From Alphaproteobacteria bacterium (GTDB lineage: Bacteria > Pseudomonadota > Alphaproteobacteria > JAAXGF01), in contig CAUVXB020000002.1 of assembly GCA_963555825.3 (NCBI GenBank), positions 512,001-576,000 of the forward strand: a stretch of DNA of 64,000 nt. Reading direction: 5' to 3'. Shown in pieces: positions 4,811 to 58,623 of the stretch. Within the stretch, counting starts at the first letter, position 1; every line of letters begins with the position of its first letter. Position numbers and translations under genes: made by a program. The notes beneath the pieces are model-generated. The model was not told the DNA's origin. It saw nothing but the letters and a program-made list of their open reading frames with translations, and did not search any database.

Positions 4811-5575
4811 TCAGTTAGCAGTCGGGGTTTGACGCCTGCGGCTCTGGTTGAGCCTGTAGCTGTCACCGTTCATCTCGAGGATGTTGACGTGGTGGGTGAG
4901 GCGATCGAGGAGCGCGCCGGTGAGGCGCTCGGAGCCGAACACCTCGGTCCATTCGTCGAAGGGCAGATTGGTGGTGACCAGGGTCGAGCCCCGCTCGTAG
5001 CGTTGGCTGAACACCTCGAACAACAGCTCGGCGCCGGTCTTCGACAGCGGCACGAAGCCGAGTTCGTCGACGATCAGAAGCTTGTAGGTGGCGAGCTTCT
5101 TCTGGAACCTCAGCAGCTGCTTGTCATCGCGGGCCTCGATGAGTTCGTGGACCAGCGCGGCGGCGGTGATGAAGCCGACCGAGAGGCCCTTCTGGCAGGC
5201 CGCCAGGCCGAGACCGAGGGCGATGTGGGTCTTGCCGGTCCCACTGTTGCCGAGCGCGATGAGGTTCTCGCGGCGCTCGATGTACTCGCAGCGGGCCAGC
5301 TCCAGGACCAGCGCCTTGTTGAGCGAGGGGATGACCTTGAAGTCGAAGCTGTCGAGGCTCTTGACCACGGGGAAGCGCGCCGCCTTGATGCGCCGCTCGA
5401 CCATGCGGCGCTCGCGGTCGATCAGCTCGAGCTCGGCGAGTCTCAACAGGTAGCGGACGTGATCGACGCCTTCCGAGGCGCACTGCCGGGCGATCTTGTC
5501 GTACTCGCGCAGGAAGGTCGGCAGCTTCAGCGTCTTGAGGTGGTGGGCGAGCAGCACTTGCGGTGTGTCGGTCAT
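4811..5575 (-). CDS. istB: IS21 helper ATPase IstB
   Basis: GNSGTGKTH Walker A, IVDELG, LDRLTHH. Confidence 0.95.
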   Translation of the reverse strand: MTDTPQVLLAHHLKTLKLPTFLREYDKIARQCASEGVDHVRYLLRLAELELIDRERRMVERRIKAARFPVVKSLDSFDFKVIPSLNKALVLELARCEYIERRENLIALGNSGTGKTHIALGLGLAACQKGLSVGFITAAALVHELIEARDDKQLLRFQKKLATYKLLIVDELGFVPLSKTGAELLFEVFSQRYERGSTLVTTNLPFDEWTEVFGSERLTGALLDRLTHHVNILEMNGDSYRLNQSRRRQTPTAN

Positions 5576-20002: not shown

Positions 20003-21223
20003 TCAAGCGATGGCGGCGAGGTACCAGTCGACGAACCAGGCGCAGGGGTTCTCCATCGGCGCGTAAGGGCCGGGGACGTAGTAGCGCGAGTTGACGCCCT
20101 GCTGGTTGCGCTCGACGATCGCCTTGTCGGCCTCGGTAGTGACGCGCCACAGCCAGGTCACCCGTTCGACGTCGTAGTCGCGGCCCTCGACCGCGTCGTC
20201 CCTGACCAGCCAGACGACCTCGCATTCGGTCTCGTGCAAGCCGCGCGGCGTGAAGCGATAGACGACGGCGTGGTCGGCGTAGATCAGGAAATGGCTGATC
20301 GGGCCGAGCTGCAGGTCCGAGGCGCCGCCGTCGTGGCCTGTCAGATCGCCGAGCGGCGGCGCCGCCGGCTTGCCGTCCTCGGTGCCGGTCTGATAGCCAT
20401 CGAACAGCGCGTAGCGGCCGTAGTAGTACTGCAGGCGCGACGGGTCGTCGGGGCTCCAGGTAAAGTCGACGGTGCCAGGCGTCGCGCCGATCTCGCAGGC
20501 GCGCACGGCCATCGCCGCGTGCAGCTTGGCGGCGCGCGATTCGGGCAGCTTGATGCTGTGCGAATCGGAAAATTCAGGGTGCGACGGCGCGCAGTGGTAA
20601 CACTCCATGTAGTTTTCCAGCATCAGCTTCCAGTTGGCGTCGATCGTATAGGTCTCGCTCGCGACCACCTTGGTGTTCTCGAGACGGTAGGGCGCGAGGT
20701 GTTCGTCGAGCGCGCCATGCGCCGCGTCCAGGCTGCCCGCGTCGTCGGCGAAGTTGATGAAAATCAGGCCGTGAAACACGGCGGCGTGAATCGATCTCAG
20801 GCCGTGCGTCGACTTGTCGAAGTCCTTGGGCATCAGGCGCGCCGTCTGCAGGCTGCCGTCGAGGTCGTAGGTCCAGCCGTGGTAGGGGCATATGAGCCAG
20901 CGCGCGTTGCCGCAGGGCGCGTCGCAGATGCGCGAGCCGCGATGGCGGCAGACGTTGATTAGCGCGCGCACCGCGCCGTCGGTGCCGCGCACGACGATGA
21001 CCGACTCGCCGGCGATTTCGTATGTCAGATAGTCGCCCGGCTCGGGCATTTCGCTGACGTGACCGACGTAGAGCCAGTTGCGCAGGAAGATGCGTTCGAG
21101 ATCGCGCTCGTAGACCTCGGCGTCGTTGTAGAACGCCCGCCCCAGCGCGTGGCCCGGGCGGCGCTCGCCGATGAGCGAGGCGACCAACGCGCTCGATCCG
21201 GGTTTCGTCGCTGCCGCATGCAT
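20003..21223 (-). CDS. Rieske non-heme iron oxygenase alpha subunit (GbcA/betaine N-demethylase-like)
   Basis: CRHRG...CPYHGW Rieske motif, ANWK..ENYMECYHC...H. Confidence 0.9.
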   Translation of the reverse strand: MHAAATKPGSSALVASLIGERRPGHALGRAFYNDAEVYERDLERIFLRNWLYVGHVSEMPEPGDYLTYEIAGESVIVVRGTDGAVRALINVCRHRGSRICDAPCGNARWLICPYHGWTYDLDGSLQTARLMPKDFDKSTHGLRSIHAAVFHGLIFINFADDAGSLDAAHGALDEHLAPYRLENTKVVASETYTIDANWKLMLENYMECYHCAPSHPEFSDSHSIKLPESRAAKLHAAMAVRACEIGATPGTVDFTWSPDDPSRLQYYYGRYALFDGYQTGTEDGKPAAPPLGDLTGHDGGASDLQLGPISHFLIYADHAVVYRFTPRGLHETECEVVWLVRDDAVEGRDYDVERVTWLWRVTTEADKAIVERNQQGVNSRYYVPGPYAPMENPCAWFVDWYLAAIA

Positions 21224-21460
21224 GGACACCACTCCTCTCGTCGCCACGCCGCAACCGCTGGCGTCCTCAGCTATCGATGAGACGATGGCGATGGCCGCGT
21301 CGCACGCGTGCCTAGTGCGGCCGGTCTGCGTCTTGCAGCGCCGCGCTTCGCCCCGTCGCGCGCCAGCATAGCCGAACCAATTTCGGCGCGCCAGCGCCGC
21401 GTGACGCGTCGCGGCTTGGGCTATCCCGGGCGCGCGAATCGGGGTAGAAATCGGGTCGTC

Positions 21461-21838
21461 ATGGAGAACCCGAAACAACGCTCGCCGCGCGTCACGGCGC
21501 TCGCCTGGGGCCGCGTCGAGGTCGAGGGTGGCGCAAGCTTCAAGGATGCCAAGCTCTACCCGGGCGGCGCGCGCGAATGGGACTGGCGCGAGACCGGCAC
21601 GCGTCATGCGCCCGGCATCCAGCCGGCCGACGTCGAGGAGCTGATCGCGCGCGGCGCCGAGGTCGTGGTGCTCAGCCAAGGTATCTGGGAACGCTTGCGG
21701 ATCATGCCCGAAACGCTCCAGGCGCTGCGCCGGCACGGCATCGCGGCCCACGTGCTCGAAACCGAAGAGGCGGTGACGCTCTACAACGAGCTGTGCGAGA
21801 CATCGCCGGTCGGCGGCCTCATCCACTCGACTTGCTGA
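21461..21838 (+). CDS. Mth938-like domain protein (AAMDC)
   Basis: WDW.ETGT.H.PG, C-terminal IHSTC. Confidence 0.88.
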   Translation: MENPKQRSPRVTALAWGRVEVEGGASFKDAKLYPGGAREWDWRETGTRHAPGIQPADVEELIARGAEVVVLSQGIWERLRIMPETLQALRRHGIAAHVLETEEAVTLYNELCETSPVGGLIHSTC

Positions 21839-21845
21839 GCAGGGC

Positions 21846-22358
21846 ATGCAGCGCCGCACCCCGGCCAGACGACAGCCGCGCCGCGGCCCGATCATCGTTT
21901 CGGGCGGCCAGACCGGCGTCGACCGCGCCGCGCTCGACGTCTCGCTTGCGCTGGCCCTGCCGTGCGGCGGCTGGTGCCCGCGCGGCCGGCGCGCCGAAGA
22001 CGGCGTCATCGCCGCCCGGTATCCCCTGACCGAAACGCCGCGCACCGCCTATCTGCAGCGCACCGCCTGGAACGTCCGTGATGCCGACGCAACGCTGGTG
22101 CTGCTGCGCCGCGGCCCGACCGGCGGCACGCGGGCGACGATCCGCCTCGCCCGGCGCCGCGGACGGCGCTGCCGCGTCGTCGTCTTGGGTCCGAGCGCTC
22201 GGCCGGGGCCTGTAGTCGGCTGGCTGCGCGCCGCGCGCCCGCGCGTGCTCAACGTCGCCGGGCCGCGCGAGAGCGAGGCGCCGGGCGTCTACCGGGCGGC
22301 GTTCGCCTTCCTGCGAACGGTCCTCGCGGCGACACCGACGAACCGGTCGCGCCGCTGA
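21846..22358 (+). CDS. Putative molybdenum carrier / SLOG-family protein
   Basis: SGGQTGVDRAALD, GGWCP.GR.AEDG, LNVAGPRES. Confidence 0.85.
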   Translation: MQRRTPARRQPRRGPIIVSGGQTGVDRAALDVSLALALPCGGWCPRGRRAEDGVIAARYPLTETPRTAYLQRTAWNVRDADATLVLLRRGPTGGTRATIRLARRRGRRCRVVVLGPSARPGPVVGWLRAARPRVLNVAGPRESEAPGVYRAAFAFLRTVLAATPTNRSRR

Positions 22359-22418
22359 TTTCGCTGGCCAAGCCGAGGCGGCCAGATGCTATGGTGCCGC
22401 CCACGAAAGGAAATCAGA

Positions 22419-22640
22419 ATGCGCTGGATCGCCGCCGCCACCCTTGTGCTGCTGGTCGCCTGCGAAAATCGCATCGTCGAGTCGAGCCCGGCCGGTGTCT
22501 TGATCGAAGGCGGCGAGTTCGCACGCGAAGCCGAAGCGATGGCCAAGGCGCATTGCGCGAAGTACAGCAAGAACTACCAGCTCATGGCGGTCGAGCCGAT
22601 GACGTTTGTCACCTGGATCCACCACTACGATTGCATCTAG
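22419..22640 (+). CDS. Small lipoprotein
   Basis: Lipobox LVAC, AAGGA RBS, further Cys pair (AHCAKY...YDC). Confidence 0.7.
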   Translation: MRWIAAATLVLLVACENRIVESSPAGVLIEGGEFAREAEAMAKAHCAKYSKNYQLMAVEPMTFVTWIHHYDCI

Positions 22641-22678
22641 ACGACGGCATTCAGGGGCCAGGCCGCGGCCCGGAAACC

Positions 22679-22747
22679 GGTGGATAAGTGCATAGGCCTG
22701 TGGATAAATCCGCAAGCACCTGAAATCGCTTCAGAATTAAATCCACA
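22679..22747. promoter_or_regulatory. Cluster of DnaA-box-like 9-mers
   Basis: TGTGGATAA perfect (22699-22707), GGTGGATAA (22679-22687), AAATCCACA (22739-22747), followed by AT-rich tract. Confidence 0.55.
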
Positions 22748-22789
22748 AGAAATTTCAATCCTTTATCGATTATGCCTTGTCTTCGGCAA

Positions 22790-23420
22790 TAGTCCCGGAG
22801 ATAATTTAAATTGCGTGAAAGCGTCGGGGCAATGAATTTCCCGGTAGTATTGACAGTAAACTTTCGGGTTTGTTGTTTTTACCGCCAAGATGTTCAGAGT
22901 TCCGAGACAGACAAGCTCGTTCGCGAGCCTGCCTGTCGGGGGGCGGTCAGGTATTTCGCAAGAAATTCTCGATCGCCGGGCGGTTGATCCGCCTCCGCCC
23001 CGCACCGGGCTGTTCGCCCAACGCCAAGCGGCCTCCGGGTCGCCGACGCGGGCAGGCGAACGGGGATTGCCAAACGCCAAACGGTCTTCGGACCGTCGAC
23101 GCGCCCGGCAGTCGGGTGCCGACCCCTCGGGGACGGTTCCACCCACCGCCACGGAAGGTGCATCCTCGGATGCACCAACCGCTGGCCGGTAGGTCCGGCT
23201 AAGGATGGAATTGGATATCTCGCCTAAGGGCAGCGCGCCTCGCAAGGGGCAGCCGCCTTCATCGCCGACGATGGCTCTTCCCGGGGCACTCGTCCGGCAA
23301 TGAAAACGGCCAGCCGCCTGCCGGCTTTCGCCAACAGGAGTCTGACCGGCTCCAGAGACGCCAGGAGTGTCCCGCCCGGACACGTAGCGTTGGCCTAACG
23401 GCCTCGCTCCTGGCGTCTCG
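22790..23420 (+). ncRNA. Candidate large structured non-coding RNA, family unassigned
   Basis: More than 12 hairpins with UUCG/GCAA/GAAA/CUCG loops, G-U pairs favouring + strand, duplicated module with compensatory changes, no credible ORF. Confidence 0.65.
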
Positions 23421-23456
23421 ATTATTTATCAGGTCTCTCGCTCGAAAACAACAACA

Positions 23457-23643
23457 TATTGTGGTCGGCCCCGAAAAAGCTACAAGGGGTCAACACGGCG
23501 ATCCTGATCGATCGAAATTTTCCGGCCCACGCCAGTCTTATCCCAACAAGAGGGGAGCCGCCGACCGTTCGGCCACGCTTGATCCCATAAGACTGGCATG
23601 CGCGGCGATTGAGCGCAGGTCGCCGTAGGTGACCGCACAAAAT
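23457..23643. repeat. Structured motif, copy X (homologue at 48360-48489)
   Basis: Three identical blocks of 17, 26 and 16 nt shared with copy Y, separated by variable stems. Confidence 0.75.
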
Positions 23644-23675
23644 AACAACCGCACAATGAACGGCCAGACGAGCCC

Positions 23676-24428
23676 CTACCACTGTGACGTCGGCATGACG
23701 ACCAGCTCAGAAATCACGACGTGGGCCGGCTGCTCGAGGGCGAAGACGACGCAGCGCGCGATGTCTTCGGCGTCGAGCAGCGTCTCGTAGCCGTCGTAGA
23801 AGGCGCTGGCCTTCGCCTTGTCGCCCTGCCAGCGGGTCTCGCCGAACTCGGTCCGCGCGGTGCCCGGCAGGATTTCGGTGACGCGGATGCCGGTGCCGAC
23901 GTAATCGGCGCGCAGCGAGGCGGTGAAGCCGTGCACCGCGAACTTGCTGGCGGCATAGATCGTGCCGCCGGCGTAAGCCTTGAAACCCGAGATCGAACCC
24001 AGATTGACGATGTGGCCGCGGTCGCGTTCGACCATGCCGGGCGCCACCGCACCGGTCACGCGCATCAGGCCGGTGACGTTGGTCTCGACGATGCTCGCCC
24101 ACTGCGCCATGTCGCCCTCGTCGAAACGTCGGCGGCCGCCGATGTCGTGGCCCGCGTTGTTGACCAGGATGTCGATCGCGCGCAATTCCTCGGGCAAGCG
24201 CTCGATCAGGTTCCCGGTTGCCGCGGCGTCGGTGACGTCGAGCGTCAGCGGATGGCAGTTCGGCCCGAGCCGCTCGCCCAGCGCGCGCAGCCGATCGAGC
24301 CGGCGCGCCGCCGCGATCACGCGGCACCCCTTGGCGACCAGCGCCTCGGTGATGGCGACGCCGAAGCCCGCGCTGGCGCCGGTGACCAGCGCGACCGCGC
24401 CGGACGCCAGGATCGGCTCGCCGGCCAT
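23676..24428 (-). CDS. SDR-family oxidoreductase (YdfG-like)
   Basis: TGASAGFG, NNAG, YAASK. Confidence 0.9.
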   Translation of the reverse strand: MAGEPILASGAVALVTGASAGFGVAITEALVAKGCRVIAAARRLDRLRALGERLGPNCHPLTLDVTDAAATGNLIERLPEELRAIDILVNNAGHDIGGRRRFDEGDMAQWASIVETNVTGLMRVTGAVAPGMVERDRGHIVNLGSISGFKAYAGGTIYAASKFAVHGFTASLRADYVGTGIRVTEILPGTARTEFGETRWQGDKAKASAFYDGYETLLDAEDIARCVVFALEQPAHVVISELVVMPTSQW

Positions 24429-57862: not shown

Positions 57863-58623
57863 CCGACACACCGCAAGTGCTGCTCGCCCACCACCTCAAG
57901 ACGCTGAAGCTGCCGACCTTCCTGCGCGAGTACGACAAGATCGCCCGGCAGTGCGCCTCGGAAGGCGTCGATCACGTCCGCTACCTGTTGAGACTCGCCG
58001 AGCTCGAGCTGATCGACCGCGAGCGCCGCATGGTCGAGCGGCGCATCAAGGCGGCGCGCTTCCCCGTGGTCAAGAGCCTCGACAGCTTCGACTTCAAGGT
58101 CATCCCCTCGCTCAACAAGGCGCTGGTCCTGGAGCTGGCCCGCTGCGAGTACATCGAGCGCCGCGAGAACCTCATCGCGCTCGGCAACAGTGGGACCGGC
58201 AAGACCCACATCGCCCTCGGTCTCGGCCTGGCGGCCTGCCAGAAGGGCCTCTCGGTCGGCTTCATCACCGCCGCCGCGCTGGTCCACGAACTCATCGAGG
58301 CCCGCGATGACAAGCAGCTGCTGAGGTTCCAGAAGAAGCTCGCCACCTACAAGCTTCTGATCGTCGACGAACTCGGCTTCGTGCCGCTGTCGAAGACCGG
58401 CGCCGAGCTGTTGTTCGAGGTGTTCAGCCAACGCTACGAGCGGGGCTCGACCCTGGTCACCACCAATCTGCCCTTCGACGAATGGACCGAGGTGTTCGGC
58501 TCCGAGCGCCTCACCGGCGCGCTCCTCGATCGCCTCACCCACCACGTCAACATCCTCGAGATGAACGGTGACAGCTACAGGCTCAACCAGAGCCGCAGGC
58601 GTCAAACCCCGACTGCTAACTGA
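57859..58623 (+). CDS. istB: IS21 helper ATPase IstB
   Basis: GNSGTGKTH, IVDELG. Confidence 0.95.
   Translation: MTDTPQVLLAHHLKTLKLPTFLREYDKIARQCASEGVDHVRYLLRLAELELIDRERRMVERRIKAARFPVVKSLDSFDFKVIPSLNKALVLELARCEYIERRENLIALGNSGTGKTHIALGLGLAACQKGLSVGFITAAALVHELIEARDDKQLLRFQKKLATYKLLIVDELGFVPLSKTGAELLFEVFSQRYERGSTLVTTNLPFDEWTEVFGSERLTGALLDRLTHHVNILEMNGDSYRLNQSRRRQTPTAN

Follow-up and report, generated by a model that had tools for sequence, protein, structure and literature searches.

OLE, ROOL and GOLLD, large RNAs whose settings are Firmicutes or phage, are the closest described counterparts of the RNA analysed here. They resemble it in size (~0.45–0.9 kb), in their dense helices with stable tetraloops, in abundance and in being encoded by a stand-alone gene with no obvious coding partner. 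Our RNA differs from all three in that neither the window (the whole stretch of 64,000 nucleotides that was analysed) nor 22 homologous loci match any Rfam model, in its occurrence in a minority of alphaproteobacterial families, and in having a phased DnaA-box-like promoter array together with a central region that tandem duplication enlarges. Self-assembly has been reported for RNAs of the OLE/ROOL/GOLLD type (PMC12286853).

Two other groups of RNAs invite comparison. CsrB/RsmZ and CrcZ share with the present RNA repeated stem-loops whose number varies between lineages, as well as high expression. By analogy, the locus may also be likened to the expansion segments and variable arms of rRNA, RNase P RNA and tmRNA, in which a peripheral helix is added at a fixed site of the core and drifts by compensatory change; the present RNA is none of these. 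We rejected the locus as RNase P RNA, tmRNA or 6S RNA, since each lies elsewhere in the genome (RNase P RNA at C2:327909, 274 bits; an alpha-type, two-piece tmRNA at C2:3187533, 262 bits; two copies of 6S RNA at C1:2210609 and C2:27081). At the level of DNA, the region upstream of the RNA resembles DnaA-controlled promoters and titration sites, with putative 9-base boxes that match TGTGGATAA, run head to tail with 11-bp phasing and include one inverted box.

The locus carries a duplicated hairpin within an expressed, structured RNA that belongs to a family and has a promoter architecture of its own (Table 1). We consider it highly probable that the two repeated modules noticed in the window are the cores of adjacent hairpin arms, arm 2 being duplicated, in a ~613-nt, highly expressed structured RNA of an uncatalogued alphaproteobacterial family.

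Table 1. Features of the RNA locus; positions are those of the window unless a homologous locus is named.
Feature	Position	Strand	Description
Upstream box array	22679..22707	+	GGTGGATAA 22679-22687, GTGCATAG 22688-22695, TGTGGATAA 22699-22707; phased 9-11 bp
Inverted box TTAAATCCACAAGAAAT	22737..22753	+	43 bp from the TGTGGATAA box, ~70 bp from the RNA start
Sigma-70-type promoter	22777..22805	+	TTGTCT-17-GATAAT; predicted start ~22812-22813
Large structured RNA gene	22813..23425	+	~613-nt primary transcript; RNA contigs, fold, covariation, homologues
P1, 5′ hairpin	22813..22824	+	GCGU-GAAA-GCGU; helix 1, 90.8% of cells paired; conserved as ACGCGAAAGCGU in homologues
Arm 1	23010..23063	+	9-bp outer helix, internal loop, 3-bp CGC/GCG helix, CAA/CGAC internal loop, 6-bp inner helix, UCCG loop
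Module copy 1	23020..23050	+	AACGCCAA-GCGGCC-TCCG-GGTCGC-CGACGCG
Arm 2	23065..23113	+	Architecture as arm 1, but 7-bp outer helix and UUCG loop; only in the window's clade
Module copy 2	23073..23103	+	AACGCCAA-ACGGTC-TTCG-GACCGT-CGACGCG
Terminal three-way junction	23355..23429	+	Base helix 12 bp, 23355-23366/23408-23419; hairpin a 23367-23383; hairpin b; U-rich tail 23421-23429
Downstream motif AACAACAACATATTGTGG	23447..23464	+	Conserved; ~25-40 nt past the tail, outside the transcript; alignment, plus L109, L110, L112, L115
~150-nt junction element	L040:136-283; L024:1007-1154; L116:1501-1648; L085:1740-1837		

The sequence-only reading had described two 31-nt copies with the same flanks and differing stems, and both are found exactly where it placed them, with a spacing of 53 nt. 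Its compensatory changes are also correct: between the copies, pair 1 goes from G-C to A-U, pair 5 from C-G to U-A and pair 4 from G-U to G-C. The repeat extends beyond the limits it was given, forming a 35-nt ungapped block with 28/35 identical positions at the same 53-nt spacing; within this block, 5 of the 12 inner-stem bases differ and none of the 15 flank bases does. A pattern search of the whole 6.04-Mb genome returned the exact module at these two sites only. Three 1-mismatch matches elsewhere in the genome all lack the hairpin, and the reversed control pattern gave 0 forward matches and 1 reverse match. Two shorter recurrences had been pointed out as well, and they are present but unremarkable. 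CGCCAA occurs at 22883 and 23329 as claimed, but the hexamer is common (99 times in the window; shuffle mean, 54), and these two sites show no conservation in an alignment of 19 sequences. Likewise, GGCAATGAA does recur at 22828 and 23296, but ~0.7 repeated 9-mers are expected by chance in ~600 nt, and each copy is mutated in one of two close relatives.

In single-sequence folds, each module is the core of a 50-nt hairpin arm, and the identical flanks build its 3-bp CGC/GCG helix. The minimum-energy fold takes a share of 0.87 and 0.90 of the ensemble for arms 1 and 2, respectively; on their own, the two arms reach only modest z-scores for folding energy (-1.6 and -2.0), 16/200 and 6/200 shuffles folding equally well. 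The two double compensatory changes and the one G-U to G-C change of the inner helix are joined in the outer helix, as read from the folds, by two further double compensatory changes and one U-A to U-G change. Compared pair by pair, no pair is broken by any change. The modules are real RNA structure within a non-coding RNA, and the differences between the copies are compensatory. A DNA-level feature that is merely transcribed, such as a REP-like or mobile repeat or a set of protein-binding DNA palindromes, would account for units that are tandem and each palindromic in a genome rich in insertion sequences; however, the 6 Mb of the genome contain just two copies, pairing survives the changes, with G-U pairs (relevant only in RNA) among those kept, and the arm belongs to a covarying RNA in which it is a conserved hairpin. 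We give that explanation very little credence.

Two arms, with ~53 extra bases, are found in the window and in two relatives that are ~95–96% identical to it (L088 and L091). The 16 other non-redundant homologues have a single arm at the same place, as do the other 18 rows of the 19-sequence alignment, including two (L007 and L011) that nevertheless carry different extra units. An arm-only MAFFT alignment misaligned the outer helices across lineages and predicted only 4 arm pairs; single-sequence folds were used instead. All 20 arms examined fold alone as one 16–24-bp hairpin with a UNCG loop, despite widely differing sequences. As placed by the alignment, arm 1 is the counterpart of the single long UNCG-capped hairpin in every other family member. 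Because only the window and its two close relatives have two arms, arm 2 is a tandem duplication of 53 nt specific to that lineage.

Tandem duplications were found in 5 of the 8 RNAs examined and are independent between lineages. The duplicated units are 53 nt in the window's clade, 76 nt (two copies) in L007, 142 nt (two copies) in L011, 82 nt (four copies) in L109 and 216 nt (two copies) in L107. Since other lineages duplicate other central hairpin units, growth by duplication is a family trait. In this RNA family the 5′ and 3′ domains are conserved, and tandem duplication of hairpin units enlarges the central region.

The modules had been proposed to act as in a sponge or decoy RNA, in which repeated modules titrate an RNA-binding protein or small RNAs, the AACGCCAA/CGACGCG loop would be one binding unit, and copy number varies as in CsrB/RsmZ. 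Central repeat units that recur independently in five of eight RNAs, an abundant RNA, and flanks that stayed identical while the stems diverged at 5/12 bases all speak for it. What recurs in the family, however, is the duplication of hairpins; the repeated unit differs between lineages in sequence, length and hairpin number. AACGCCAA/CGACGCG itself extends only to the two ~95%-identical relatives and is missing from the other 16 non-redundant homologues, each of which has a single arm, so at the family level the module is not conserved at homologous loci, the very outcome that the sequence-only reading had named as refuting it. In this, the present RNA differs from CsrB/RsmZ and CrcZ. The hairpin loops in the window and its homologues are UUCG, CUCG, UCCG or GNRA, that is, generic UNCG or GNRA tetraloops and not a recurring loop motif of the CsrB/CrcZ kind; inside the RNA there is no GGA-in-loop motif, and no CA-rich motif was noticed by eye. 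The CsrA domain (PF02599) had 0 matches in the window's genome, which is 99.3% complete (controls matched in 3/14 genomes), and no Rfam model of Csr, Rsm or Crc RNAs matched. Finally, most of the molecule consists of large, non-repeated 5′ and 3′ domains that are conserved, and the modules are two arms of this ~600-nt RNA rather than the body of a sponge. The titration reading keeps some weight because modules recur, and loses weight because no motif is family-wide; overall, we regard it as unlikely.

The identity of the flanks deserves attention within the reading that we prefer, that of hairpin arms on a large structured RNA. By our own arithmetic, 15 unchanged flank sites would have a probability of ~0.005 if the per-site change rate were even 30%. 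Because 0/15 flank bases changed, the CAA/CGAC internal loop is probably under constraint, unless gene conversion, which could be the source of the identical flanks rather than selection, kept them so. We dropped the tetraloop-receptor and kink-turn readings of this loop, to which the sequences gave no support by eye.

The structure is not restricted to the arms. Region 22860-23425 folds with z = -6.2. An alignment of 19 non-redundant full-length RNAs, passed to RNAalifold slice by slice, yielded a composite structure of 143 pairs in 27 helices. Standard pairs occupy 83.6% of 2684 cells, a figure that leans towards this structure because the structure was derived from the same alignment; with partners slid by 1–3 columns, 40.6–45.8% of cells are paired. 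Pairs changed on both sides number 91, against 45–56 when slid, and the covariation score is 0.389, against 0.10–0.15. None of 500 shuffles reaches any observed measure. The window's own row keeps standard pairing in only 101 of the 140 consensus pairs. G-U cells exceed A-C cells in the 19-sequence alignment (331 versus 123), which favours the + strand. The terminal junction is the most conserved part of the family: its helices 25–27 are paired in 92.5–100% of cells, it is the part also matched by BLAST, and it is near-invariant in close lineages and covarying in distant homologues. A model-made alignment (A4), which mixes reverse-strand and partial matches, was read only and given no pair count. 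With helices kept by compensatory change beyond the controls, the alignment identifies this as a structured non-coding RNA.

The modules sit in a 1-kb intergenic gap. Upstream on the + strand lie a cpYpsA-family gene and an 84-aa frame, and the downstream neighbour of the RNA gene is a convergent short-chain dehydrogenase gene. Metatranscriptome contigs from four runs of three studies cover 22826-23382/23388, with a word depth of up to 27,499 in run X17 and the flanking genes at zero depth. Two of the four covering runs are labelled 'sponge metagenome'. There is no RNA cover at 22400-22822 or 23434-23527, an observation that carries no weight beyond the contig stops; neither the strand nor the true transcript ends can be read from the contigs.

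It was considered whether the region could be a cis-regulatory leader (a riboswitch or attenuator) or part of a protein-coding gene. Open frames of 110 aa (+) and 206 aa (-) do overlap it, yet they have no Pfam match, and neither the 53-nt insertion nor the other indels have lengths divisible by three. A terminator-like junction closes the RNA, the next gene is convergent, RNA cover ends at both ends of the element, and neighbour genes differ between lineages. Both versions of this proposal are, in our view, hardly tenable. Across lineages no gene neighbour is shared, and within lineages the surroundings are partly syntenic.

At the 3′ end, the 12-bp base helix is followed by GAUUAUUUAU. A terminator scan did not list this site because what its stem closes is a three-way junction instead of a short loop, and the RNA contigs end ~35 nt before the U tract. 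Contigs start at 22826/22827 in three runs, just after P1, and stop at 23382-23388 in three, just after hairpin a. These starts and stops, which coincide across runs, are a faint hint of processing at both ends; trimming there may leave the conserved CCAGAGACGCCAGGAG stretch of the mature RNA unpaired. Adapter sequence lies directly beyond the contig end in two runs. Past the transcript, AACAACAACATATTGTGG is conserved in many lineages as GCAACAAnATATTGTGG, an imperfect inverted repeat with a TGTGG half-site; box-like sites therefore occur on both sides of the RNA gene.

Elsewhere in the window, identical 301-aa frames at 4970-5269 (-) and 58165-58464 (+) recur at ~80 places genome-wide. They contain an AAA+ domain (40.7 bits to PF00308) and look like IstB-type helpers of an IS21-family element multiplied in this genome. 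A 680-aa frame at 20003-22045 (-) encodes a Rieske/ring-hydroxylating dioxygenase alpha subunit; its Rieske domain begins only at residue 323, and the listed start is therefore probably too far upstream.

The promoter region is shared across the family. TTGTCT-17-GATAAT is the sole promoter-like site in 22300-24000; in the homologues, the aligned position carries a TTGCA -35 element. When loci are aligned on the inverted TTATnCACArrAA box, up to four head-to-tail TGTGGAtaa-type boxes appear upstream with 11-bp phasing, and the TTGCA element lies ~25 bp downstream. The 43-bp spacing between the TGTGGATAA box and the inverted box is kept in the window and in 8/8 relatives with both motifs matched, among 10 relatives examined. 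A regular expression found the array in 32 of 36 homologous loci, and on reading it is also present in L106 and L112. Perfect TGTGGATAA sites number 16 in the window's genome, and most loci carry a perfect box whose position does not vary. Five genomes were tested for the phased three-box pattern; in four of them its single occurrence is at this promoter, with 0 control hits. The window's array is no unusual cluster of boxes within its own genome: its 2 boxes (at most one mismatch) per 200 bp are matched at 14 other places and lend no support alone.

The array boxes are the complements of TTATCCACA, which we take to be the DnaA-box consensus. An 11-bp spacing of direct hexamer repeats is likewise compatible with a winged-helix response regulator, and such a regulator is a fair rival to DnaA as the predicted binder of the array. 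The locus also differs from DnaA-box clusters in its position. We rejected it as a replication origin in one genome (G080), in which GC skew continues across it. In the window's genome, dnaA and hemE are 0.7 and 1.6 Mb away and do not adjoin it, and ~80 IS21-type copies scramble the skew. Cumulative GC skew of contig C2 of this genome has a broad, noisy minimum at ~500–680 kb (lowest at 578,075), and the window spans 512–576 kb. Because the minimum falls there, a replication origin may lie near the window.

No catalogued family accounts for the locus. The whole window had 0 matches to Rfam 15 at the gathering score, including OLE, GOLLD, ROOL, HEARO, raiA, CsrB/Rsm, CrcZ, 6S, tmRNA and RNase P. 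With E up to 10, positions 22600-23700 gave four chance-level hits only, all below 19 bits. Among eight homologous loci searched with E up to 0.1, the only match was mir-B6, on both strands of L040 at 1094-1176, beyond the RNA end; 14 homologous loci gave 0 matches with E up to 0.01. In the portions of the literature that we could consult, PMC11109978 included, no such RNA is described, and supplements could hold candidate motifs; those same portions tie no promoter array of the phased, DnaA-box-like kind to a non-coding RNA.

A BLAST query of the whole element hit 12 of 61 genomes: the window's own, 10 of the 12 other genomes of its family, and one of another family (G029). Only the 3′ 70–160 nt matched across genomes, and the match in G012 is 24 nt only. 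A pattern scan of one genome per species returned 53 loci, 16 of them in alphaproteobacterial/proteobacterial MAGs, where 9 of the 16 are redundant with loci found earlier. The other 37 (L026-L076) are actinobacterial and unrelated, all of them found by a 23-nt pattern variant. This variant is conserved in many Streptomyces genomes, and the actinobacterial matches are presumably a conserved gene segment unrelated to the large RNA. A metagenome scan gave 17 loci, two of them 95–96% identical to the window, and a search of a plasmid collection found no match.

A covariance model of the 3′ domain reached further. It matched 13 of 151 genomes, one per alphaproteobacterial family and the window's genome included, which corresponds to 12 of 150 other families; in a phylum-wide sample, the same model matched 2 of 151, the window's genome and one 28-bit match. 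Ten of the twelve hits in other genomes were read, and nine of the ten are complete, with the box array, the TTGCA promoter, P1 (ACGCGAAAGCGU, with CGRAGC after it) and the terminal junction. Two loci, L103 and L105, represent lineages already in the set. Across the family, RNA length ranges from ~450 to ~940 nt.

Variants of the element were also seen. L113 (G103:C20:46632-46818) is a short atypical form of ~200 nt, with the terminal junction and an upstream TTATCCAC/TTGCACAGAAAA site and without the long central region. In one lineage, a second element of ~150 nt with the same terminal junction lies just upstream of the large RNA's promoter and scores 64–76 bits to model R1. Possible identities for it are a small paralogous RNA and a shared structured terminator; G062, too, has two separate matches.

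How the duplicated arms could serve the molecule can be sketched. We hypothesize a stable RNA, architectural or protein-binding, whose conserved ends would form the core and on which the arms would be peripheral expansions, the central arms being tolerant or multivalent extensions. After the duplication, the helices diverged by pair-preserving changes only and the 15 flanking bases stayed unchanged, a pattern that suggests constraint on the CAA/CGAC loop as a putative docking site, either for a protein or for a different stretch of the RNA itself. Synthesis of the RNA may be set by DnaA, or by another repeat-binding regulator, at the predicted box array. Taking this further, we propose tentatively, as a possibility we ourselves doubt somewhat, a new class of large RNA whose transcription would read the state of DnaA through a once-per-genome array and whose central domain would be a multivalent series of hairpin modules, enlarged in different lineages through tandem duplication so as to tune the number of its partners, whether proteins or copies of the RNA itself, so coupling replication status to another process.

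The known large structured RNAs of bacteria are few, and every one of them has led to new biology or a new RNA architecture. The family described here is abundant in metatranscriptomes and occurs in about one in twelve of the sampled alphaproteobacterial families. A covariance model, ~35 loci, defined arms, an internal loop and a promoter array make it testable material, and its repeated, independent module duplication is a natural experiment on how large RNAs grow.
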